Source: Convolutriloba macropyga
Taxonomy: Eukaryota
Length of the DNA stretch: 64,000 bases
NCBI RefSeq assembly: GCF_964194025.1
Contig: NC_134482.1
Span: forward strand, 16,492,001 to 16,556,000
Direction: 5' to 3'
Position numbers and translations under genes: made by a program. The notes beneath the pieces are model-generated. The model saw only the letters and a program-made list of their open reading frames with translations. It did no database searches and was not told the DNA's origin. Below are positions 45,420 to 64,000 of the stretch, piece after piece. Position 1 is the stretch's first letter. Each line of letters begins with the position of its first letter.

Positions 45420-46275
45420 ATCACACGAGTACCACAACTGGATGCAGTCTATGTAAAAGTACTTGTCGCTTAGGTGTATTCCAGACACGCTATGTTTCTA
45501 CAGCTGAGGTGAATTCCATAAACGTGTACCTTCAATTGAGCTGCAGCCAGTTATGTATACCTGCGGTTCAAGTGAAGTACAGGTAAGCGTACCTGGGGCT
45601 GAGGTGCATTCCACCCGGGGCTGAGGTGTAGTACACCTGGGGTTGAGTTGTAGTGTACCTGAGGTTGAGGTATAGTCCCTTTAGGAGTAACCGTGGCTGA
45701 GGTGAAGTACAAGTACGCGTACAAAGGGCTGAAGTGCAGTCTACCTGGGCTCAAATACACTCCTAGTACGAGTACCTGTGGTTGAGGTGCAGTCCATAAA
45801 CGAGTACACTTTAGGCTGAGGTGTAGTCAATGTATAAGCACCTGCGGCTGAATCTGAGTCCAGGTACGCCTGCCAAGGGCTGAATCCATCTGGAACTGAA
45901 GCGCAGTCCAATTATGAAAACATGCGGCTTAGCTGATGTCGATGTGCAAAAACTTGCGGCTGACATGCAGTCGGCGAAGTAGGCAAACCTACGGCCAACG
46001 AGCAGTCCATTTACGAGTACCTGTGGCTGAGCTGCACCCAATGTATGAGTACCTGCGGTTGAGGTGCGTTCCATCTATGAGTACTTGAGGCTGAGGTGCA
46101 GTTTCTTTACGAGTAATTGTGACTGAAGTACAGTTTATGTGTAGTCCATGTGCTTAGGTGAGTACCTGTGACTGAGCTTTGTTCAAACAAAGCTGACCGC
46201 AGACTGAAGTGCAATCCAGAGGATCTTACCTGCAGCTGAAGGACCGTCGGATGAACAAAGCCTTCAGCTGAGGAG
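45420..46275. repeat. Degenerate ~32-bp minisatellite
   Basis: Consensus gagtacctgtggctgaggtgcagtccatntat; regular units visible at 46015-46130. Confidence 0.85.
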
Positions 46276-48312: not shown

Positions 48313-51300
48313 TCAAATTTGGATAGAATAACAACAATTGAAAATTGGAGTTCCCCAAATTTTGGTATATGAATTGTAGAAGCCTCAATAATAAACATGA
48401 GCAATTGTCTCGTTTTTTGAAAAATCTTAATGAAACCTCATTACTAGTTGTTACCGAAACATGGATAAACGAAATAACTGACATTCCCGAGTTTTATCTG
48501 TGCAATAGCCATCACTTCATTCACCAACCAAGATCATCTTTAACTAATGTACAGAGAGGTGGAGGGGTAGGTATTTGGGTTCCCAAACAGTTTGAAGCAA
48601 AAATGAGAAATGATTTGAACACAATCAATAGAAGTTTTTTTGAGTCAAGGTGGATTGAAATTGGTAAGCCTTTAACACAAAAACTACTCATTAATGTAGC
48701 ATACTGCCCCAATGTAAATCTTTCTAACTTTTTTCTGGATGAAATGACTGTAGAAATCTCAAATGTATATTCGTATACAGATAATCTCATTTTATTAGGA
48801 GATTACAATATAAACTTGTTAGGCACAAAAGGTAGACAGTCACTTGATATTTTCACAGCAAACAATGGGCTATGTTACGTTAATGAAACGGAGGCAACAT
48901 GGACAAATGGTGAAAAATATTCGTTAATTGATCACTGCTTTATCTCGAAGAACCAAATTTTTGAAGCCAGTGTTCTAGAGTCGACTCTTGGAGTTGATCA
49001 CTTCACAATAGTATATCAGTCATCATTAAAAATAGATCACAGTGATAAGAAAAGACAGTTTTTGATACGTTATACCAAGAAATATTCAAGATCAAATTTT
49101 AATCGTGACATTGCGCTGCAAGATTGGTCGCCTATGCACCAGATAAATGAGCCGAACGAAATGTTTTTAAAAGTTATTGAAGTTTTTGAAAGTATACTGA
49201 GTTGTCATGAACCCTTGAAGTTGGTAGACAGTAGTACCAAAAAACAACAAAAGCAATGGTTGACAAAAGAATTACGTGGTCTCATAAATGAAAAACACCG
49301 TCTCTTTAATGCGTGGAAGAAAAACCCAAAATCAGAGATTTATAACATTTACAAATCTTTACGCAATTCGGTGAGTAGAAAACTGAAAAAAGCTGCAGAT
49401 GATTACACAAAGACTTTTTTCCAGCAGCTACCAACTTCAGGAGAACAATGTAAATTCATCAAAAACAGGATCAATTCCAACAGCCAAATAGAAAAAATTG
49501 ACAATTTAAAGGAAAATAGTCATTTTGTTGAGGATGACAGAGAGACTATCAATGTTCTTAATAATTGTTTTGCGAGACTAGGATTATACAAAGGCAAAGA
49601 CGTTGCTCCAAATTGTTCTTCCCTAACATTTGATGGACCGGAATTTAGCTTCCGACCAGTCACCAGAAAAGAATTGTATAATGTTATTGATAATCTACCT
49701 AAGCATAAATCTCCCGGACCGGGCTATGTACCAGCATGGGCGCTAAAAGATAGTAAACTGTCTATTGGAACTCATTTACAATTTGTCGTCAAGGAATGTA
49801 TAAACAAAAACACGTTTCCTTATATTTTGAAAACAGCGCATGTTACACCTGTCTATAAGAAGTGAGATCGACTAGAGCCAGAAAACTATCGACCCATATC
49901 AGTCACACCAACTCTAGCAAAAATTTTTGAGCGAATACTACTTGAACAACTAACTCACCATCTAACTCTTAATGGTCTGATTAACAAGAATCAATTCGGC
50001 TTTCAAAAGCAAAAGTCCTGTCTCGATACTATCATTTCATTAACTGAAAAGATAAACCAATGCGTTGACGAAAGGAAACTGTTGTCACACTCTTTTTAGA
50101 CTTAGCAAAGGCTTTCAACTCAATATCTATAGATGTTTTTATGAACAAAATGAAAAGGTATGGAATTGGAGAAATTGCAAGAATCTTATTAAACTCTTTC
50201 CTTTGTGACAGAAAACAGTTTGTAAAAAATCGGATAGCAAAATCAGATTGGGTTGTCATAAATCACGGTGTTCCTCAGGGAACTGCCTTAGGGCCTCTAA
50301 TTTTTATACTTTATGTCAACGATTTCAGTGAAGCTGTATCAACGAATTGTGATGTATTACAGTTTGCCGATGATACAGCAATTCTATGTCATGCACAGAA
50401 TGAAGCAATTTTACAGTTAATAGCTGAAGATACATTCAACAAGACAGATCAATATATGAAACAAAACAGGTTAACTTTGAATGAGAAAAAAACGGAGTTA
50501 ATGGTGTTCAGGAATGAAAAATTGCCGATCATTGAAACTGTCGATTTCAAGGGACACCGATTGGAAACATCTGAAAAATGTAGATATTTAGGTGTAATAA
50601 TTGATAGGGAACTGACATACCAAAATCAACTAAATAAGGTTATCAGTAAAATGGCTTCAGCAATCAGATCATTATATTTGGTTCGTTATCAGGTACCGCT
50701 AAAAACAAGAATAAATCTTTTTAAATCACTAGTTTTGTCTCATTTAGATTTTAGCGCAATTTTTTTTCAAAATTTACCATCTTACTCTATTGACAGAATT
50801 AACAAACACATAAACTGGGGGAAAAAAGTTTGCTTTATGAAAACCAAATACGATACTGCCAGAGATCTACTTCTGGAGACTAAAATTCTTCCAGCAGAGC
50901 TCCAAATAACACGGGTGTCTTTAAATAGATTTTTCAATATTCTCCAACAAACAAGAAATCGCTCTAATAAACATTTCAGATTTTTAGAAAACGTGTCTAT
51001 TATTGTAAACAAACGAACCCATAACCTTTTCTTAGAACAAAAATGTAAGTCAAAATGGAGTAATGGTTCAATTGTTCGTAACTTTATTCGAAAATGGAAC
51101 ACACTTCCAATTACAATTAGAAAAGAAACGTCGAAGACCAAATTTAAACAAAAAGTTACAGCGGAAATGCTTAAACGACACGAAAGAGTTCCAATAGACA
51201 GAAGTGGTGCAGGATTTAAACATATTTTTTATTAGATTATTTTACGAAAACCGAACCTTAGTTTGTTATAAATTAGAAAAAAATAATGTTTGATTAATAA

Positions 51301-52434: not shown

Positions 52435-53730
52435 TGTATTACCAACCAGAATATACGCAACTACTTGGCAAGCCAAAATATTGTTGATTCAAGAGGGTGA
52501 TAAAACCCACTTTGCATTGAAATTGAAGCCACAGATCCAGAATTTGAACTTTTGTTCCGTTGGTTTGTTTATCAATCCGAGCAGTGATATGATAGCATCT
52601 GGAACCTTACTATGGGGACCAGAAAACTGTCGTAGAGTTTTCGTCGACGGATCTCTTTTTTCAAGCTACGGCTCACATTAAGCTCTTCTTGCTTAAATCA
52701 AGATCGTGACCGGATTTATGGGTAAACTTCTGTAATAATCACATTCGTTTATAAAAAATATCATTCGAAAAACGGAAAAATTGTTCCTAAATAAAACATT
52801 GTTATATGTTATTTTGACTTAAATCAGGGAATCACTGCTAGAGAGCGTTAATGGACACAATCATTTCGCTTCACTAGACAAAAGTCATCCTCAGACTCTA
52901 TCAAATTTGGCTGGGCTGCTACAGATCACACAATACGAGATCTCTTTATGTATGCCAGTCAAACTTGACAAAAGATATAACAAATCGAAGGCAAAGATAT
53001 ATCCCTAAGACCTGTCTGTGCTATAAGTCTCAATTTAAAACTGTTGGGGGGCTGAAAAGTTCAATTAATTAAATAGATAGTTTAAATAAACAAGCTTACA
53101 CTGAGTAGTATTTAACCGGGTTGAGCTGTTACTTGATTGTGTTGTTGTTAAGTGAGTGCGTCGTTGAAACTTCTTCAAGTCGGGTTCTGTTTGAAAGTTA
53201 GAAAATGTTCTTCTAAGTAAGAAGTCTTTTATATAATTTCTTCTCTGTTTGAATTTTGAAATTTAGTTTGTAGGAAAAATGAAGCAGTTGTCTGCTGCTG
53301 GTCGTTGGCTCTGTTATTTGTCTCTTTAATTTTATTCCGTCCCACTTCGCTGAGAGAAACAATTAATTCCTCTCAGCTCCGTTTGGGCCGTTAGGGAGCG
53401 AATCACAAACTCACGTTCATAGTGCAGCTGTCATATTGCAACTGTCAAAAGCAGAAGTAATTTAAATCAAAAGAAACTGTGGTTTTACAGGCCGCCTACG
53501 TTCAACAACGTACATTTTCTGTCCTGGATATAAGCGTGGAGATCCAGGCCTAAAGTTGTGTCATTTAAATAAGTCGAACTGAGTTGTTTAAATACTTGTG
53601 TACTGGTAGTCTTAATAAGCGTTAGTTTGTTTAGCGCGCGGCGAAAGAATGGTTAATTAGCGCCTAAATACGTTCGCTCTAATGCGGGATTAATTATCCG
53701 TTCATTTGTAACGGCTCTCGTAATAATACA
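52435..53730 (-). repeat. Putative 3' LTR (~1.3 kb)
   Basis: On minus strand, starts TGTATTA right after purine-rich AAAATCGGGGTGAGC and ends TAATACA (7-bp terminal inverted repeat), followed by ATAT(C). TATATAAAAG at about 53226-53235. The 5' LTR is not in the window, so the distal end is inferred. Confidence 0.6.
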
Positions 53731-53847
53731 GCTCACCCCGATTTTAAGATAGAAAAGAAAATGACTAAAAGAAAAAAATATACGGCATCGTATATGATTT
53801 TATTGCGCTTGGGACATATGAATGAGTTACTACAAGTTCAGACAGTT

Positions 53848-53921: not shown

Positions 53922-55096
53922 TTAGTTAAAAAATTCTGGAGGCAAAATGACTGGGCTTGGCATCGGACTGTTACCATCGTCTTCGATCAAAAGAACCTCT
54001 TGTATATCGTCCTCAGTTGGTTCGTCCTTATCCATTGACTGTCGCTTTTTGTGCTTTTTAACCCTCCTTTTGAGCTCGGAAATTTTGGTTTTTTGTTCAT
54101 CGTTTTCCTTCATTAATTGTGTTATTTTCTTTCCTAGCTCCAGATTCTTTTCTCCAAGTTTTTTGTTGGCGTTTGTTATTTCTAGATGTTTCAAGGAGAA
54201 CGTTTTAGCAAAGTTTGCGCGTTTGATTTGCTGGTTTTTTGGAGTTGATGGGCAACGACATATTGGCGCCGCCAATAGTCGTTAGGTAGTTGCTTCTCCT
54301 CAGGTGGTTTCTGTGATTCCATTTTAAGTTGTTCAAATTTCAGTTGCAATTCTTGCAACTCTGTTTCCTTTTGAAATTGTTCCTGCCTGAATGTGGTGTT
54401 TTCCTCTATTAAACTATTGGTGTTGATATTTGATAGTTCTGGCATCTCGACAGGAAAAGCGGAAATGGCATCGTAGGGGACTTCAATATATGCGTCGAGC
54501 ATGTTATTCCTAAGGGTATAAATGCCCTTCTTAGGGTCGCGATTTTTGATTCTCCATTTGTTGTTTTCTGCGGGAAGCGAGAAGGTTTTCAGAACTGGAA
54601 GCTTTTCGCTGTTGACTAGTATCTGTTGATGTCTATTTGACTGGATGATGTTTATTTTATTAGCAACCTCAAATTTGTTGTAGTTTGGTTTCAGGAAATA
54701 GAGGAGGGTGTTAACGTATCTCGGGTTTTCTTTATTCATGTTCTTCTCTCGCGGTTTCTGCAATTTCAAACATTCTGAGGGTATTTTCCTGATAGCGTCG
54801 GGAACGAGATCTTCAATGTTGTTCATCTTAATAATTTTGTTTTTGTGATTGCTAATTTGTTGGGTTGGGAATTGTCTCTTTCTGCTAACTTGCCAGTTGT
54901 TTTCGGGATCATATTGACTGGAAGTTGATGGAGATGCAACAGTTGTAGTAACTTGTTGTGTGTTCTGAGGTTTAAATGGAGGCTTTGTGAAAATAGGAGG
55001 CTGAGAAGAATGGGTTTGTGTTTGTTCTTGTTGTGTTGTCACTTGTTGATGTTGACTGGGGATTACTACGCTTGCGAGTGTGGGTCTGGTAGTCAT
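53922..55096 (-). pseudogene. Accessory protein (~390 aa if one frameshift near 54200 is repaired): Q/T/P-rich N-terminus, coiled coil, basic NLS-like patch, acidic tail
   Basis: Overlapping ORFs 54191-55096 and 53922-54275; LELGKKITQLMKENDEQKTKISELKRRVKKHKKR; EDDIQEVLLIEDD. Confidence 0.55.
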
Positions 55097-55381: not shown

Positions 55382-55500
55382 TACTTATGCCAGGCGGGCA
55401 GCCCTGGCACAAGTACGTCTTACTCCGCTGCCCGGAGGTGTGAGTCTTGGGGCGTGCGTCACACTAACACGGCTGCAACGACCCGTGCAGCTGGGGAGAC
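55382..55500 (-). other. GC-rich structured RNA element with complementary hairpin loops (kissing loop or pseudoknot)
   Basis: 13-bp stem UACUUGUGCCAGG/CCUGGCAUAAGUA (G-U pair only on minus strand) with loop GCUGCCCG. Neighbouring CUCC-GGGCAGC-GGAG hairpin has a complementary loop. Two further 6-bp stems. Confidence 0.6.
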
Positions 55501-55785
55501 AACCTTGCTGAATTGAAAGAAAGAAATTTTCCGGGTCATTCTTGGAATTTTCAGTTATCGTGTTAGTGTTCTGAATTATTTAGGTTCAAAAGCCAGGGGG
55601 GCAGGCTGGAGAAAGCTGAGGTAACCCCTTCCCGAGGAAAAGTTAAGAGAGAGAGAGAGAGAGAGAAAAAGATCGTTTGTACTTGAGTTGTTTTTGATTT
55701 ATTAGACAACGTCGTCTAAAAAAATTTTTTGCAAATGGGACATCTTGTCAGCTTATTTATGCACACCCGACAGAATCGGTGTTTG

Positions 55786-56097
55786 TCATGTTGGGAAAAA
55801 TGTGGGTGTTTTGTTACTCCTAATTCTGTTTTCATTTTTTTTGCATAAATTGCAATGAAAGTAGGATGTGATCAGGACGCGAAGACAAGCTCGAAGACAA
55901 ATGGGACATTTAGGGTTTGGGTATCTTTTAAAAAGTGCCTTTCTGCAAGGAATACATACATAGTGAGGATTTTCTCTGGGAAATTGCTTATGTAGTTTTT
56001 CTACAGTAACGGTTTTTCGTGAACATATGGGGCAGATAATGTCCGTATGGGGGTAGAACCAACGGAAACCGTCGAATAGGGATTGTGAAAGACCCAT
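55786..56097 (-). CDS. Accessory RING-like zinc-finger protein C (103 aa, MGxxxS myristoylation motif)
   Basis: CPIC-KLH-PHYVCIPC-PKCPIC-FHCNLC; paralogous to 56556 and 57157 ORFs. Confidence 0.75.
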   Translation of the reverse strand: MGLSQSLFDGFRWFYPHTDIICPICSRKTVTVEKLHKQFPRENPHYVCIPCRKALFKRYPNPKCPICLRACLRVLITSYFHCNLCKKNENRIRSNKTPTFFPT

Positions 56098-56121: not shown

Positions 56122-56244
56122 TTAGATAGAAACAGGAAAACCTTTGAGAAACTGCAGTAGGATGAGATTAATGAGGAACGATATGGCAAGCAAGGTAATT
56201 AGGATTAGGATAAATATTTTTGTGGATAGGCCTAGATTGGTCAT
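56122..56244 (-). CDS. 40-aa single-TM micropeptide
   Basis: MTNLGLSTKIFILILITLLAISFLINLILLQFLKGFPVSI*; AAAATG start 2 nt after the previous stop. Confidence 0.55.
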   Translation of the reverse strand: MTNLGLSTKIFILILITLLAISFLINLILLQFLKGFPVSI

Positions 56245-56246
56245 TT

Positions 56247-56363
56247 TCACTGTCTGGAGAAAATTTGGCGAATTGTGGAAAGGAGGTAGTGATTAATAAA
56301 AAGGGATATTGCCAATGCGCATAAGAGAACAAATAGAAGAATAAACAATGTTATGGGTTGCAT
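56247..56363 (-). CDS. 38-aa single-TM micropeptide
   Basis: MQPITLFILLFVLLCALAISLFINHYLLSTIRQIFSRQ*; shares LAIS.+IN..LL with 56122-56244; AAAATG start 4 nt after the previous stop. Confidence 0.55.
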   Translation of the reverse strand: MQPITLFILLFVLLCALAISLFINHYLLSTIRQIFSRQ

Positions 56364-56367
56364 TTTG

Positions 56368-56505
56368 TCAATTCAATGAGTAGTGTAGAACTAGGGTGAA
56401 GGAGGTGACTTGCTTCTGGTAAAAACTGAGTTGAATTAGGGATATCGATTGGATTAAAAATAAAACTAGGGAAAGAAGTAAAATTTTGGATGTTCTTGGA
56501 CGCAT
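56368..56505 (-). CDS. 45-aa hydrophobic micropeptide
   Basis: MRPRTSKILLLSLVLFLIQSISLIQLSFYQKQVTSFTLVLHYSLN*; AAAATG context. Confidence 0.45.
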   Translation of the reverse strand: MRPRTSKILLLSLVLFLIQSISLIQLSFYQKQVTSFTLVLHYSLN

Positions 56506-56555
56506 TTTAGGTTATGTGATTGTTTTTTTGCAACGAGGGCATAATTTATAATCTT

Positions 56556-56888
56556 CTACGCAAAATTTACAAAAGTTGACGGGCTCATGATCACTGTGAT
56601 GAAACGTTTTTGCAACAGAATATTGAAATCTTGTTTCTTGCAAATATCACATTGAAACCAGTTAAAGATTGAAAAGATAACTCTAAATTTAGAGCATTTA
56701 GGACAAAAATCATAGCCCATATCTTTTATAACATATTGGTAACAGAGCAGACACATTACGTGGGGTAGTTCGTTAGGGGCGTTCTCGTGTAATTTCTTGA
56801 AAACAATTGTTTCACGTCTGCAGCATAAACCAATTAATGAGACCGGTTTGGATTCTATAGTATTGGTTTCTTTGTCAATTGTATTCAT
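56556..56888 (-). CDS. Accessory RING-like zinc-finger protein B (110 aa)
   Basis: GLCC-KKLH-PHVMCLLC-CPKC-FQCDIC, same spacing as paralogs. Confidence 0.72.
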   Translation of the reverse strand: MNTIDKETNTIESKPVSLIGLCCRRETIVFKKLHENAPNELPHVMCLLCYQYVIKDMGYDFCPKCSKFRVIFSIFNWFQCDICKKQDFNILLQKRFITVIMSPSTFVNFA

Positions 56889-56914
56889 TTTTGAAAGATT
56901 GTTATTGGAAGAAA

Positions 56915-57163
56915 TTATGGGACTGGCACGGTTGGAGGATTTGGTTGTCGATTATTTTGGGATTTTATTGTTTGGTCTATTACTAATATAATTATGAACA
57001 TCAAAAAGTTGAAAGGAATACTTACAACTACGAGGAAAACGGTTAAAACGAAGGAGAAGGCTGCTGCAATAATCATAAGGGCCATTAATAAAAAATCAAG
57101 TAATCTGGGGGTACACATTTTGGATAGTTTGTGAACGTAGTTTTGAATTGAGGATTTTACCAC
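56915..57163 (-). CDS. Small membrane protein (82 aa, long hydrophobic segment)
   Basis: LLDFLLMALMIIAAAFSFVLTVFLVVVSIPFNFLMFIIILVI; start overlaps the previous stop (ATGGTAA). Confidence 0.6.
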   Translation of the reverse strand: MVKSSIQNYVHKLSKMCTPRLLDFLLMALMIIAAAFSFVLTVFLVVVSIPFNFLMFIIILVIDQTIKSQNNRQPNPPTVPVP

Positions 57164-57555
57164 GGGTTGTTTGGGTCAATTGTTTGTTTGCATAAAGGGC
57201 ATTTAGTAGTTGTGAAAATCATACACTGCAAACAAACTGATTTTTTTGGGTGTAGGCTTTTGAAGTGGCTGTGGCAAGTGCATAACTTTTTGATTTCTTG
57301 ACAAGAATCACACTGGAAATAATGGCAATGACTGATTGTATAAATGGGAGTTACGCAAATGGGGCATTTAGGTTGGTTCCAATATTTAAATAATTCATTT
57401 CTACAAGGAATGCAAGCAAAAGGGGGGGTTTGACCGTTTGGGTTTTTGTGCAATTTTTTAAATTGACGACAAGGGAGGTAACAAATAGGACATTCGATTT
57501 TTGGGGTTGAGTCAATTTGTGGTTGCTGAGATAATATTTCCAAAATGTTTCCCAT
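57157..57555 (-). CDS. Accessory RING-like zinc-finger protein A (132 aa, extra C-terminal Cys cluster)
   Basis: CPIC-KKLH-CIPC-PKCPIC-FQCDSC, then CTCH..H..CLQC..CPLC. Start overlaps the previous stop (TAATG). Confidence 0.75.
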   Translation of the reverse strand: MGNILEILSQQPQIDSTPKIECPICYLPCRQFKKLHKNPNGQTPPFACIPCRNELFKYWNQPKCPICVTPIYTISHCHYFQCDSCQEIKKLCTCHSHFKSLHPKKSVCLQCMIFTTTKCPLCKQTIDPNNPW

Positions 57556-57821
57556 TATATGGATAAATCAGAGAGATCTGGGTATGCGACTCCTAATCCA
57601 TGGTGTTCAAGTTCGTTGGGGATAGTTACATTTAGATCTGCGATAGCAAAAAAGAAATTCCAGTGTTTCTCGTTTGGATAGATGTAATAATGATTAATGC
57701 TACCTGTGCTTAGGAACATAAAAGTTATTTTGATACATGCTTTATATTGTATAAAACAGATAGTAAACCATCTTTCTGCTTTAACAATTTTAACTTTTTC
57801 CTTACCAATGAACAAAATCAT
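57555..57821 (-). CDS. Accessory family A protein (88 aa)
   Basis: MILFIG..VKIVKAERWF...P..KHWNFFFAI...IPNEL family signature. Confidence 0.65.
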   Translation of the reverse strand: MILFIGKEKVKIVKAERWFTICFIQYKACIKITFMFLSTGSINHYYIYPNEKHWNFFFAIADLNVTIPNELEHHGLGVAYPDLSDLSI

Positions 57822-57944
57822 TTTATTTTTAACAATTTGGAATGAATTGAGGGAAAAGGGACAAATTGATTAGAAAAAAAAGAAATAATGAGCAGGGAAA
57901 AAAATTATTTTTTTCGGAGAGAAAGTTATGTGAAACAAATTACT

Positions 57945-58175
57945 TTACTGAAGAGCGCCCAAGTTGACTGGGAAGTGCTCTTCGATATCAATGAGTGCAA
58001 GAAAGAATTCCCAGTGCATCATTCCCATGGTGACTCGAGTAGAACCCTCACATCCACGCTCGTAGTCTGTATAGTGTATAATTATACAGGGTTTAATCTC
58101 TGCTGTGGGAGTTTTAATGAAAGATCTCTCGAGGGACTCTACTTTGACTAGGCGCTCACCAAAGTGGAACAGCAT
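57945..58175 (-). CDS. Accessory family A protein (76 aa)
   Basis: MLFHFGERLVKVESLERSF...PCIIIHY...HWEFFLAL...FPVNL; TAATG overlap with the previous ORF. Confidence 0.68.
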   Translation of the reverse strand: MLFHFGERLVKVESLERSFIKTPTAEIKPCIIIHYTDYERGCEGSTRVTMGMMHWEFFLALIDIEEHFPVNLGALQ

Positions 58176-58408
58176 TATAGAAGATCTAAATTAAAAGGGA
58201 TTTTAGAACCATTTAAAGCTTGGGATATATTTATAAAGAATGTCCAATAGGGGGAAGATGGTGTTAGGGTAATGGTTTCATCAGTCCAAGTGTTTAAATA
58301 TTCAAAATGGAGTATTAGTTGTGGGATTACTCTGTTGCTTTTTGTCGTGACAAATGATTTTTCAAAAAATTGTACTTGTTTAAGGCAGTTTTGGTATGAG
58401 AATATCAT
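58175..58408 (-). CDS. Accessory family A protein (77 aa)
   Basis: MIFSYQ...EKSF...PQLILHFEYLNTW.DETITLTP.S.YWTFF...IPFNLD. Confidence 0.68.
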   Translation of the reverse strand: MIFSYQNCLKQVQFFEKSFVTTKSNRVIPQLILHFEYLNTWTDETITLTPSSPYWTFFINISQALNGSKIPFNLDLL

Positions 58409-58416
58409 TGCTGCTT

Positions 58417-58701
58417 TTAATTGTGAATAGTTTCCAACTCTTTAAGGATTGAATCGTTTTGGCTAGAATCAGTCTTTTGCATATCAAAATAAATATTGTG
58501 AGGTACACAGTTTGGATTTTCTAGAATAAATAGGAAGAATTTCCAATGAACTGAGAGAGGATTAATACTTATTAAACAAATTTTTTCACTTTAGATTTCT
58601 TTGAGCGTTACTAGCATAGTAGGTACAGGAGTTGGCTATGCATCAAAAGATCGTTGAATTTTTTGTAACTCTACAAATTTATTGTTAACTGCAAATATCA
58701 T
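58417..58701 (-). pseudogene. Accessory family A paralog with two in-frame stops
   Basis: MIFAVNNKFVELQKIQRSFDA*PTPVPTMLVTLKEI*SEKICLISINPLSVHWKFFLFILENPNCVPHNI. Confidence 0.6.
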
Positions 58702-58957
58702 AGTTTAGAATGATACCTAAGCAATGTAGATTGGATGTTGTACTTGAAATACCAAGTTCTCTTTGAATGCTAGAAAAATGGTAAATTCGGCGAACTGAGG
58801 ATGAGTAATGAAAATAGTTAAAAGTCTGTAAATATTTGTCATGGGTTTTTTTTGCGAAAGTCATTATATTTATAGCGGAAACATAGTATACGGCTAATAG
58901 CTCAAAATTTTGGTTTCCGATTCTGATTTGTAAGTTTCTATTAGTTAAATGAATCAT
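58685..58957 (-). CDS. Accessory protein (90 aa), weak similarity to 59491-59775
   Basis: ATG ORF overlapping both neighbours by 17 nt; L.IR.G...++L...+SA+ shared with the 59491 ORF. Confidence 0.5.
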   Translation of the reverse strand: MIHLTNRNLQIRIGNQNFELLAVYYVSAINIMTFAKKTHDKYLQTFNYFHYSSSVRRIYHFSSIQRELGISSTTSNLHCLGIILNYDICS

Positions 58958-59183
58958 GTTGCTGATCTAGCTCTTTTGGCAAACTATTAGGGTCGAATTG
59001 TGCTAAATACACGAATTAATTCCAACACAACGAATGAGGGGTTAAAATCACAGTATCGTTTTCCCAAGTGTCTCAAAACTCAAAATTTATAACAATTTGA
59101 GGGAAAATGTCTCCGTGTTGTTCTTCAAAGGTTTTCTTTATTTGATAAATTGTAACAAGTCTATCTTGAAACAAAAAGTACAT
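58941..59183 (-). pseudogene. Accessory family A paralog with two in-frame stops
   Basis: MYFLFQDRLVTIYQIKKTF...PQIVINFEF*DTWENDTVILTPHSLCWN*F..LAQ...LPKELD, clearly colinear with 58175-58408. Confidence 0.65.
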
Positions 59184-59490
59184 CAATGGAAGCGTTTTAG
59201 TTGTTAATTAACTTAGTGTTCTTCATTTCAAAATTGGTATTAAAATAAATTTTTAAAAAAAGGATAAAAAAGAGTGTCAATTATTTCTAAAAACAGGATT
59301 ATTGACAACGATTGATATTTATAGATAATATATCAATCGGATTCACTGTAGTAAAATCGGAGTAGGGGGAGAGTGCAGGCAATAGCTAGATGAACATAGT
59401 TGGGATTACATAATTGAAACTGGATTATAAGAAATAAAAAGAAAGAAAGAAATTCATACATGTCTCTCAATGTTGAACTTACAAGAGAAT

Positions 59491-59775
59491 TCAAAATCTA
59501 GTAATATTTTTCTTCAGGTGCTTTGAAACAATTTCGTATTCGATTCCAATGTTTACAAAAGTAATTGTGTTATCAATCAGGGCTCCTAACAATGAGAAGT
59601 TTTGAAAATTTGAATGTGGTACATCCAGATCAATGATGTCACTGAAGTAGAAAGATGCAACTCTAATAGTTACAGTAGTTTTCAAGGCGGAAATACTTGA
59701 TGATAATATTTGTCCGGTGTATTGTCCAAATCGAATGAATAAAGCGTTAGGCTGTTTTATGAATTTGGGCTGCAT
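59491..59775 (-). CDS. Accessory protein (94 aa), first ORF after env
   Basis: ATG-initiated, co-oriented ORF; function unknown. Confidence 0.5.
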   Translation of the reverse strand: MQPKFIKQPNALFIRFGQYTGQILSSSISALKTTVTIRVASFYFSDIIDLDVPHSNFQNFSLLGALIDNTITFVNIGIEYEIVSKHLKKNITRF

Positions 59776-59902: not shown

Positions 59903-62337
59903 TTAAGGAGGTGTCACCACACTTCGAATTATTGCATCATTTTGTGGTTGTGGTTGATGTGACGCCAGACTTGGGTATTCTGCTTTATTATTTTCTGTAT
60001 GACAATGCTCATCAATTTTATTTTCTCTTGGTTGATCCTCAACGCATTTGTAAGTTTTTTCTATTGTGCTGTAAGGTTGATAATTACTAAGCGGTAAAAA
60101 GTGATTGTTGTTCTGTGGGGCCGACGGTTTGGTTTCGTTAGAGAATACCGGTGTAAAGAACGATAAGATACAAAGATTATATGTTGCTCCTAATAGAATT
60201 TTCCAAAAACCCATTGTTTTGTTGGATATTTTGTGGATTTCGAACGCTCTTATGATTGTTACGATTACATCAGTTAAGAATTTTATGCAAAAGAAACAAG
60301 CAAAATAAACTCCAATTTTTTCCAGATAAAAAGTGATGATTCCAAAAGTGCCTTTGAACTGGTCTGTAAAAAATGTAGGTGAAAGAAGAGAATCTAGATA
60401 AATTTGTCTGTTAATTCCCATTACTGACGCATAGATATCTTTTTGAGAATTTGTCTATGCTTCTTCCTTCTAGAACTTCTCTTGAAATTTTTGTCAAAAC
60501 AGATTTTGAAGCTTCCGAATGCAAGATATTGTCCCAAAACGATTTAAGCTGATTTGGTGTGTAAATTCCGGCACGTTGCGATTCGTAACCGGTAAATTTT
60601 GGAATAGAACTAATAACTCTTGAAGAGAATATGTTTGGCGGTTGTAAAGGAACAGGTGCTGGCATCAAATGGTACTATGAGTTTTCATTATCAATATCTA
60701 ATTGGTAGGCATTTTTATAGCCTCCAACACAATCTACTTCGTTTGCAGATGGGCAGGTTTGTCGAGTAATTGGGTCGACGAACATTGTCCTACCATCATA
60801 ATGAATAGGAATTCTATCATAACACTGCTCAAGAACCTGAAGTGGTGAGTTTGGGTTTGGACAGTGGTACAGCCAACCTATGCTACCATCTGTGTCTAAG
60901 AACATCGAGCGGTTGCCGGTTAACATATATCCAGCTAAACGATTGTTTTGGATAGCCTGCATTAGTATCATTTGTTTTTGAGTTCGGTCAAGTTCGCATT
61001 GTTCTATGACCAAACCTTTCCATGCTTGTTTTTTTTGTTTGCATGTAACTATGATATATGACAAAATCCATTTTTACCGCAAGATTAAGATCATAGTCTA
61101 ACTTCTCTTTGTCTAAGTGTTCCCATGCAACAAAACCTTTGTCGAATGTTCGGATCTGTTCATCTGAAGGCTTCCTATTAAACCCATTTACACTTAGGCT
61201 ATTGTCAGGTTCAACACGAAGTTTATGAAAAAATTGTTGAGTTTTTTGTTTTATAAGGTTTGCCAGTCTTCATATTAAATCCGCCTTTATAAGAAACATA
61301 TAAAGAATCTAAATTTGTTCTGTAAATAAATTCTGGTTTTCCACACACCTTTTCTTTTTCATCAATTACTCTAATTTTTATGTCCATTTCAGCAGGAGAA
61401 TACGCTCCTGGTCCTTCATAGGGCGTCTCCGGTTTTTCATTACTCACTATGAAATACTGTACGTTACCAAGTTCGTTTTCATGTTTTAGCATTTTGGCGT
61501 TTTGTGAAAATCTTTTAGTAACTATACAATTTTCCGGTGCTTCCCAATTGTATGCAAAGGGGTCGAGTGATGTCGAATGACAACCTCCTTCTGAGAGGGC
61601 ACAAGGAAGTTTTAGTCCTTGACTGTTATAGACAGTTCTGTCATTAAGATCAATATCGAGTACAGTTTCTTGCATCAGGGTTTCAAAAGAGAAAAAGAGA
61701 AGTGTTTAATTTGACCACGATTATCACAAGATGTTGATGAATCACCTTCAAGATCAACTCCCTGGTTTTTATAGGAGACAGTTTTTTTTCCATGTTTTAT
61801 GTCAATTTCCATGTCATCATCGTCAAATTCGGTAACAGTAATTTTTCCAGTTTTATTAGCATTTAGGCATTTTTCGGGTGAAACAATAATATCGTATGTT
61901 ATTATTGGAGCGTTGTGTACAATTGATGAATGGGAAAACATACCACAATTATAACGAATGAGCATTGCAGTGACTTTGCACATAAGAGCTTTAACAAAGT
62001 TCCGATAAGACCGTTGATAAAGTGTTACATGTGTATCAACCATCTGAATGTTTTCGGGTGAATTTTTGCAAGGAGAAACTTGTGTTAAAGCATACATTTT
62101 ATTTTCTTTCATTTTAGAACAGTCATAATGAATGACCCTAAGTTTGTTAGATACGTCATTAATATCCTCAAAAGGAGGTCCAGTGGCGTTAATAACTATA
62201 GGAAGAGTACAAAAGTAGAAAAGACTTATAAGTAAATAAGAAAAATAGAGTTTTTCAAAACAAGGATATCTGTTCATCCTGTTCTTTTTTAGCGCTTCAA
62301 GTCGGGAATTAAGGCTATGAGTTGTAGTAATAGGCAC
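59903..62337 (-). pseudogene. env: Envelope glycoprotein, chuvirus-like / class III fusion type, split by frameshifts and one stop
   Basis: Signal-like YFSYLLISLFYFCTLPIVINA. Motifs HYDC, CKV..YNCGMFSH, LDYDLNLAVKMDFV, AGY..LYHC..CYDRIPIHY..FVDPITRQ..EVDC and GIYT..QL. C-terminal TM segments. Confidence 0.75.
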
Positions 62338-62967: not shown

Positions 62968-63999
62968 TTAGTTTTTTTCTACTGTATAAGGTCCTGATCT
63001 TATTTCATGTAGTTTTTTTGACTTTCCTAACTCAATTTGATGGTTTTCCATTAGAACTTTTTGTCCAACCTCAAGTGGCTTGCCTAATTTGTGTTTGTTT
63101 CTATGTTTATGTGCGCGGTTATTGTTTTCTAAGCTCTTTTTATAAGCGTTATTGTATATTTGTTTGAATTGGTTTTCTTGCATAAGCAACGAATTGTTAA
63201 TAGTCGGTTTTAGAAGTTTGTCAATTTCGGTGTTTTTTGAAGTTAGCAAGGTATGCCTGTGAAGAGGCAGGTCTTTGCAAAACTCGGAAGAGCATGTGAG
63301 TTGTGAATTTCGTAGGAGTCCTAACTTAAGTGACAGAGGTATCTGTGGTTTTTGTCCGAACACAATTTCATAAGGTGAGATTCCAGTACTAGCATTTGGA
63401 ACCGTGTTATGAGAAAAAGCAAATTTTGGTGCCAGTTCATCCCATTTACCTCGAGCTTGTTCTAGAAAAATTCGGAAATGTGCTCCTAGATGTTTGTTTT
63501 GGATCTCAACTTTACCATTAGTCCAAGGCGCATAAGCAGTTCGAGGTGCGGGTCTTATACCTAAATCATGAATGTAACTCGCAAAATCTTGGTTCATGAA
63601 TGCCGAACCCTTATCATAAACAAGTTTTTGTGGTATTCCAGAAGACAAGATGAACTTTTCTAAAGCTTTTATGGTGTGTACTGCGACTGTGGAACGTACA
63701 GGGTATACTTGAATCAAACGCGAAAATGAATCGACAATAACTAAACAATGGTGTTTACCAATCGATGGAGGATTTAAAGGTCCTTTGTGATCAATATGGA
63801 CCGTATGAAAGGGGAATGGGACTGTATCATTCCAATTTTCGAGAGGTGCTTCGTGGATTTCTCTCCGTTTTTTTTCATTTTTTTTGCATTCCAGGCAATC
63901 AGCAATTAGGTTTTCAATCCATTTATACATTCCGGGCCAATAGAAAAATCGTTTTACATTAGCAAGTGTTTTATCTAAACCTACATGATCTGACAGTTC
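62968..63999 (-). CDS. pol: Ty3/Gypsy integrase (3' end of pol; open off the right edge)
   Basis: H.GLDKT..FYWPGM..CLEC zinc domain; HIDHKGP, VYDKGSAF-x35-E (NGKVE) DDE triad; GPY motif (RSGPYTV). Confidence 0.95.
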   Translation of the reverse strand, partial: ELSDHVGLDKTLANVKRFFYWPGMYKWIENLIADCLECKKNEKKRREIHEAPLENWNDTVPFPFHTVHIDHKGPLNPPSIGKHHCLVIVDSFSRLIQVYPVRSTVAVHTIKALEKFILSSGIPQKLVYDKGSAFMNQDFASYIHDLGIRPAPRTAYAPWTNGKVEIQNKHLGAHFRIFLEQARGKWDELAPKFAFSHNTVPNASTGISPYEIVFGQKPQIPLSLKLGLLRNSQLTCSSEFCKDLPLHRHTLLTSKNTEIDKLLKPTINNSLLMQENQFKQIYNNAYKKSLENNNRAHKHRNKHKLGKPLEVGQKVLMENHQIELGKSKKLHEIRSGPYTVEKN

Positions 64000-64000
64000 A

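Follow-up and report, generated by a model that had tools for sequence, protein, structure and literature searches.

Four small hydrophobic ORFs in the window, the 64,000-nt stretch of Convolutriloba macropyga DNA analysed here, are real, fast-evolving genes under purifying selection, to judge by the way their sequences vary among copies, with p1 the least certain of the four. TM67 lies between the genes RING A and RING B, and p1, p2 and p3 lie between RING B and RING C, all on the minus strand of a 19.4-kb Ty3/gypsy LTR retroelement with a gB-like env. We suggest, with a confidence that stops somewhat short of even, that the four predicted membrane microproteins serve as adaptors through which putative double-RING ligases of the same element attack host membrane proteins.

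The host element and its RING-like proteins

The features of the element that fall within the window are the following.

52899..53734, minus strand: 3' LTR, 836 bp, 99.2% identity to the 5' LTR
54191..55096, minus strand: last accessory ORF, 301 aa in the window copy, with counterparts in 5/5 families
55385..55500, minus strand: conserved non-coding element of ~115 nt, a possible pseudoknot, 3' of the peptide slot
55716..56097, minus strand: RING C, a paralogue starting MGxxxS, split in the window copy (55786-56097 and 55716-55835)
56122..56244, minus strand: p3, 40 aa, predicted single-TM, starting 2 nt past the p2 stop
56247..56363, minus strand: p2, 38 aa, predicted single-TM, starting 4 nt past the p1 stop
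56368..56505, minus strand: p1, 45 aa, a basic N-terminus and then a hydrophobic stretch (signal-anchor-like or signal-peptide-like)
56556..56888, minus strand: RING B, a paralogue without Gly2, 110 aa in the window copy, where the frame of its second half is broken
56915..57118, minus strand: TM67, 67 aa, hydrophobic, predicted to form a hairpin of two helices, its short tail polar and rich in proline
57157..57555, minus strand: RING A, 132 aa, with Gly2 and a tandem pair of RING-like zinc fingers (the first C2H2C4)
57555..59775, minus strand: upstream array of accessory ORFs, each 74-94 aa long and without a known family
59903..62277, minus strand: env, broken into several pieces in the window copy; Monjiviricetes fusion glycoprotein PF24664 (gB-like class)
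62968..64000, minus strand: the end of pol that encodes integrase, the window stopping short of gag, protease, RT-RNase H and the 5' LTR

The element extends from window position 52899 to ~16,564,270 on G000:C16, ~8.3 kb past the window end, and is flanked by a target-site duplication of 5 bp. Pfam domains PF03732, PF13975, PF17917/PF17919, PF17921 and PF00665 follow the Ty3/gypsy order gag-PR-RH-IN, and the scanned pieces of the element gave no Pfam row for the RT core. Downstream of pol, the env pieces matched PF24664 in Pfam with E values of 6e-16 and 5e-8, and in the window copy the interval from env to the 3' LTR is taken up by ~6 kb of small ORFs. The ORFs of the upstream array have look-alikes in 5/5 families. 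More than 100 copies of the element are present in the genome; when this genome was searched with RING A, 150 of 987 candidates were scored, and 150/150 were matches. Despite the LTR identity of 99.2%, the window copy has breaks in each of gag-pol, env, RING B and RING C, and part of these breaks may be assembly errors at homopolymers. By its sequence features, the element matches the gB-type errantiviruses as these are presented in the main text of PMC13524379.

Tandem copies of the element were seen at G000:C4 72.26-72.30 Mb and G000:C8 16.73-16.75 Mb, with periods of ~21.7 and 18.4 kb. Elsewhere in the window, a non-LTR retrotransposon with APE endonuclease and RT, distinct from the element, lies on the plus strand at 48369-51235, and a degenerate tandem repeat with a 32-nt unit occupies 45500-46250.

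The RING proteins consist of ~20 N-terminal residues and two zinc fingers, 125-144 aa in all, and carry no separate adaptor-binding or engager domain. The first finger fits C-x2-C...H...H..C-x2-C...C-x2-C in most copies, and the MDM2 RING has the same C2H2C4 ligand order. RING A of the window copy is without one putative zinc ligand near residue 45, and RING B is 125 aa long in 47/63 copies. A RING-like fold is predicted for these proteins. The predicted structure of a natural RING A copy had a pLDDT of 78, and its best structural rows were RING or U-box domains without exception, with MDM2 reaching 30-35% identity; these matches are weak (E at least 0.012, Z at most 5.7), and Foldseek gave no row at E <=0.001 with the RING A model. 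Pfam RING rows for these proteins were under the cut-off, and viral RING look-alikes were found. A protein search with RING A matched no named protein, and 11/11 close relatives were unnamed.

The N-termini of several RING proteins, with Gly2 or a start that fits the myristoylation motif MGxxxS/T, point to a role at membranes. Within family I, to which the window copy belongs, RING C begins with MGxxxS, RING A has Gly2 only and RING B has no Gly2.

Starts, composition and selection of the four ORFs

The first-pass annotation had described four small transmembrane ORFs interleaved with the RING genes, one of them 82 aa long. The three ORFs between RING B and RING C are found where it placed them, but the length of 82 aa does not hold, as it needs a GTG at 57163, within the last codons of RING A, and the ORF is 67 aa long from its ATG. 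The GTG-started form was discarded because the ATG at 57118 is conserved, being kept in 62/63 copies (a set from which 15/77 loci were excluded as partial), and in alignment coincides with the start codon of the counterpart in the sister family. The AAA-ATG context reported for p1, p2 and p3 was seen at 3/3 starts and also at the TM67 ATG; on the sense strand of the element it occurs at 21 of 266 ATGs. The LAIS motif common to p2 (LAISLFINHYLL) and p3 (LAISFLINLILL) is present as described.

The genes are packed head to tail, with gaps of 38, 26, 6, 4, 2 and 24 nt from RING A to RING C in copy L065. TM67 contains ~45 hydrophobic residues, enough for two helices. The weakest of the four is p1 (KD19 2.42, basic N-terminus), which from its sequence may be a signal peptide or a signal anchor. 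The hydrophobic span begins at residue 1-6 in the four peptides, and their soluble tails comprise 6-21 aa with 1-2 K/R. No tail motif was found in common between different families, and the TM67 tail is unconserved. Pfam gave no match for p1-p3 and sub-threshold DUF rows only for the TM ORF, and an ESM Atlas search with TM67 gave no usable match.

T-rich composition as the cause of this hydrophobicity was ruled out by shuffling and by a T bias at codon position 2. Hydrophobic ORFs were defined as ATG ORFs of at least 30 aa with KD19 of at least 2.2, a threshold chosen after the peptides were seen. Dinucleotide shuffles of the 458-nt spacer between RING B and RING C gave one such ORF in 35/5000 cases and two or more in 0/5000, and three were observed. 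When each ORF's own DNA was shuffled, the observed hydrophobicity was reached in 0-3 of 5000 shuffles. The frequency of T is 0.48-0.61 at codon position 2 and 0.22-0.35 at positions 1 and 3. Across the window, 7/154 minus-strand ORFs and 0/145 plus-strand ORFs exceed the threshold, and four of the seven are the peptides described here.

Selection was assessed in two sets of copies. In a set of 63 mostly young copies, the shared-variant w was 0.16 for the RINGs, 0.38 for TM67 and 0.13 for the three upstream-array ORFs tested, which are under strong purifying selection by this measure (dN/dS ~0.13), and p1-p3 gave no selection signal (w of 0.65 vs 0.69 for single variants, p=0.88). The p2 ATG is absent in 6/63 of these copies, four of which have ACG. 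The other set, to which older subfamilies were added, held 99 distinct copies that span p1-p3 at 71-97% identity, drawn from 151 loci with 11 excluded as repeats or flanks; its counts of shared variants may be raised by tandem copies and unplaced contigs. Here TM67 had an S/N of 27/30 among shared variants vs 30/122 among single variants (p=1e-4). An excess of synonymous shared variants was found in the own frame of p1 (p=0.03), of p3 (p=0.005) and of p2 over its first 30 codons (p=0.024), and in the three pooled (p=5e-5), and the shifted frames of the same 99 copies gave no significant excess (p 0.08-0.6). Shared stops numbered 0 in frame vs 7 and 3 in the shifted frames. Within the ORFs, indels present in at least three copies kept the frame (4 copies with +3 nt, 17 with -12 nt); those in the spacers were out of frame. 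The ATG and a near-normal length were retained in 69/99, 76/99, 67/99 and 84/99 copies for TM67, p1, p2 and p3, listed in that order. The shared variants of these 99 copies showed no enrichment of exchanges between hydrophobic residues (p=0.23-0.32).

The synonymous excess in the own frame, the lack of shared stops, the frame-kept indels and the non-enriched hydrophobic exchange together lead to the conclusion that the four are real but fast-evolving genes. The first-pass annotation had held that its proposal would fall if the ORFs were not conserved or translated and their hydrophobicity merely reflected T-rich sequence. Across copies, the ORFs proved to be conserved and selected, and composition does not account for their hydrophobicity.

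Related families and the exchange of peptides

Stepwise searches of the same genome led to five families, I, II/III, IV, V and VI. In family I the order is RING A, TM67, RING B, p1-p2-p3, RING C, found at 78 loci, and older copies of this family have an extra peptide, q, after RING C. Family II/III has RING A, a TM67 counterpart of 58-59 aa, RING B, q and RING C. The counterpart is 26-34% identical to TM67 in four copies and 16-19% in three decayed copies, and the likeness between the two scored z=8.1, with 0/2000 shuffles reaching it. Family IV has a single RING and then, 3 nt past the RING stop, a hydrophobic ORF of 29-34 aa, and family VI has two RINGs followed by q. A hydrophobic ORF lies directly after a RING gene in 4/5 families (I, II/III, IV and VI). 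Family V has two RINGs, and no hydrophobic ATG ORF was found near them in 11/11 copies.

The most widely shared peptide is q, which is hydrophobic, 31-64 aa long and marked by an internal EE; it occurs in families II/III and VI and in older family I copies, with z of 4-18 (loci L083 on the minus strand, L111, L125 and L045:4013-4108). It is missing near window position 55590, where the window's subfamily has a deletion of ~150 nt. Two loci, L047 and L085, have a family II backbone in which family I p1-p2 replace q, and the sequences identify this as a cassette exchange between families. The interleaving with RING genes described in the first-pass annotation is therefore true of the window copy but is not a fixed arrangement, because the peptides change slots between families.

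Pairwise shuffle scores over 66 pairs gave no significant counterpart of p1-p3 outside family I. The likeness of p2 and p3 was reached in 18/2000 shuffles, as one of these 66 pairs; the figures were 41/2000 for p2 vs the family IV peptide and 5/2000 for p3 vs q. No nucleotide signal of tandem duplication was found in p1-p3. The LAIS likeness is a weak sign of duplication, and a common origin of p1-p3 is not established.

Two further hydrophobic ORFs were seen away from the RING genes. In family VI, L123-L125 carry a multi-helix ORF of 103-105 aa upstream of the small-ORF array, at the start of the accessory block, and among the family V loci listed, L116 and L117 carry a hydrophobic ATG ORF of 37-42 aa directly after the last accessory ORF, not adjoining the RINGs.

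Counted with one representative per gene, Gly2 is present in 7/9 RINGs of the peptide-bearing families (one of them copy-specific) and in 0/2 of family V. The MGxxxS/T start is present in 4/9, one in each peptide-bearing family (I, II/III, IV and VI), and again in 0/2 of family V. In the trees of the RINGs and of the last ORF, which have long branches and a midpoint root only, no family is more distant than V, and the env-tail tree did not settle its placement. Because of this distance, the co-occurrence of peptides and Gly2 counts as one event and not as repeated co-evolution.

The conserved non-coding element travels with the peptide slot between families. It was also found at L045, L052, L081-L083, L086, L103, L105 and L111, and its 5' part only at L093, L098, L101 and L102. 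Two 7-bp helices within it could form an H-type pseudoknot; over nine sequences, 94% of the helix cells are paired, and one pair is changed on both sides. A pyrimidine tract ending in AG lies directly upstream. Rfam gave no match beyond one chance-level row, and the TURBS core UGGGA does not occur within 100 nt upstream of any of six starts.

Possible functions and comparison with known systems

The adaptor model is supported by the RING-like neighbours, by the myristoylation-type starts and by the hydrophobic ORF that follows a RING in 4/5 families. According to this model, reinitiation or leaky scanning on a polycistronic RNA would allow translation of the ORFs, which follow one another head to tail at distances of -1 to 38 nt, and RING A and RING C would be myristoylated and located at membranes. 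Each peptide would grip a host membrane protein mainly by its helix and so bring the target to the RING. The tandem RING would then recruit an E2, and degradation of the target would help particles to leave or enter cells. With several interchangeable peptides, one ligase set would have several targets. The element may thereby hold a complete, self-encoded modular degradation kit, made up of myristoylated tandem-RING ligases and swappable TM adaptors of 30-70 residues, a proposal that we put forward tentatively and at clearly less than an even chance.

Several observations weaken the adaptor model. Family V keeps two RINGs with no adjoining ATG peptide, and q and p1-p2 change slots between families. 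Tails of 6-21 aa, that of TM67 unconserved, are unlike those of known adaptors, and the RING proteins have no separate domain to bind an adaptor. The structural matches are weak, RING B is without Gly2 in family I, hydrophobic exchange is not enriched and the p1-p3 signal is absent in 63 copies. Additionally, a neighbourhood of this kind can be inherited without function. Of the split module of TM adaptor and RING proposed in the first-pass annotation, the RING-like neighbours and the gene linkage stand, and the adaptor role is our reading of them.

Alternatively, the peptides could be viroporin-like or small virion or egress proteins that self-oligomerise and support the gB-like env, the RINGs being mere neighbours, which we consider possible but rather doubtful. 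The layout is typical of rhabdoviruses as set out in the available text of PMC4334499, with small hydrophobic ORFs after the fusogen, stop-start packing and duplication; the env belongs to a related RNA-virus class, the short tails would suit a pore or packing, and TM67 is of hairpin size. However, the viroporin likeness raised in the first-pass annotation is not borne out by the tails, where the highly basic C-terminus of class IA is absent (1-2 K/R in 6-21 aa), and the peptides are placed after the RING genes and not immediately after env, while family V, which does have env, lacks such peptides in the vicinity of its RINGs. The fast turnover, the slot swapping and an amino-acid constraint weaker than that on the RINGs would fit an arms race with host targets if the peptides were stand-alone antagonists, blocking or mis-sorting host membrane proteins helix to helix, with or without host ligases and independently of the RINGs. 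Vpu and papillomavirus E5 are models for such helix-binding antagonists, and minimal tails would fit binding inside the membrane. This explanation seems unlikely to us, since it leaves the co-occurrence with myristoylation-type RING starts unexplained and the peptides show no DSG phosphodegron or other ligase-recruiting tail.

For p1-p3, it could further be argued that they are spacer ORFs tuning reinitiation at RING C, or decaying remnants, with products of little function. Such a status would suit the missing selection signal in 63 copies, the want of a significant counterpart beyond family I and the loss of the p2 ATG in 6/63 copies, four with ACG, but it is made improbable by the frame-specific synonymous excess and the in-frame shared indels of the 99 copies, by hydrophobicity in excess of composition and by the conservation of TM67 and q across families. 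A role as FAST- or sORF2-like cell-cell fusogens for envelope-independent spread is very improbable. Comparable small TM proteins are known from LTR retrotransposons, in some cases encoded downstream of pol (available text of PMC11952523), and TM67 is inside their range of 63-107 aa. However, Gly2, an ectodomain of ~30 aa and a polybasic patch are absent in 4/4 peptides, p1-p3 are below the size range, and the element has an env of its own.

If the adaptor reading is true, the degradation kit would be self-encoded, in an invertebrate endogenous retrovirus. To our knowledge, invertebrate env-carrying retroelements have been described only as gag-pol-env, and the known host defence is small RNA. 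Selected membrane microproteins beside the element's RINGs would imply a protein-level conflict at the membrane, as with the complex retroviruses of vertebrates. Because the genes are very small, present in many copies and separable from one another, screens for partners and targets are easy, and any targets would reveal invertebrate restriction factors that are not yet known. Furthermore, minimal TM adaptors for a RING ligase would be of interest for targeted membrane-protein degradation. If the peptides are pores or fillers, the finding reduces to another set of viral small hydrophobic proteins.

Among known systems, HIV-1 Vpu has a long cytosolic tail with DSGxxS and uses a host SCF ligase. 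Like the modelled peptides, it is a small viral TM protein that sends host membrane proteins to ubiquitylation. The Vpu likeness drawn in the first-pass annotation goes no further, as neither the DSGxxS motif nor a long tail is found in 4/4 peptides and Vpu works through a ligase of the host.

The gB-type errantiviruses of Chary and Hayashi (PMC13524379, main text) resemble the element in their LTRs, in the order gag-PR-RT-RH-IN and in a class III (gB-like) env after pol. In contrast, env is followed in the element by ~6 kb of small accessory ORFs, and the terms 'accessory', 'zinc', 'small ORF' and 'downstream of env' are all absent from that main text. A search of the literature, at the level of main texts, gave no separate side-by-side RING and micro-TM genes in a gypsy element, and the element list of PMC13524379 could include the family. 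Small TM proteins in LTR retrotransposons (PMC11952523; PMC5408684) and ubiquitin-related Burro domains (PMC6431247) are already known from the available texts of these papers. As described there, sORF2/FAST of the MDG1 group is likewise a small accessory TM protein of a Metaviridae LTR retrotransposon, but it belongs to env-less elements and combines myristoylation with an ectodomain and a polybasic patch, none of which is true of the peptides here (PMC11952523). The giant Burro gypsy elements and bdelloid ORF3 are similar in their ubiquitin-related or TM extra genes (PMC6431247, PMC5408684); the Burro domains are fused into the polyprotein, whereas the genes of the element are separate, and the bdelloid rotifer TM ORFs are 210-230 aa long, with RING unmentioned in the available text. 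Rhabdovirus post-G genes share hydrophobic ORFs past the fusogen, stop-start packing and rapid gain and loss, and the element differs from them, as far as PMC4334499 describes them in its available text, in having no basic C-terminal domain and no TURBS core and in its RING neighbours.

The precedent for the model is cellular. Myristoylated MGRN1 requires ATRN or MEGF8, and plant LOG2 binds the single-pass GDU1, so that in both a myristoylated RING E3 is brought to membrane targets by a single-pass adaptor (available text of PMC13161197). These ligases have a single RING and an 'engager' domain, and their adaptors a conserved tail motif, whereas the element has bare tandem RINGs of 125-144 aa and peptide tails of 6-21 aa, with no homology between the two (PMC13161197, same text). 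On the kit reading, targets would be picked inside the membrane, and the element would itself encode, in minimal form, an equivalent of MGRN1-ATRN and of Vpu with its host ligase, a comparison to which we give rather less than even weight.
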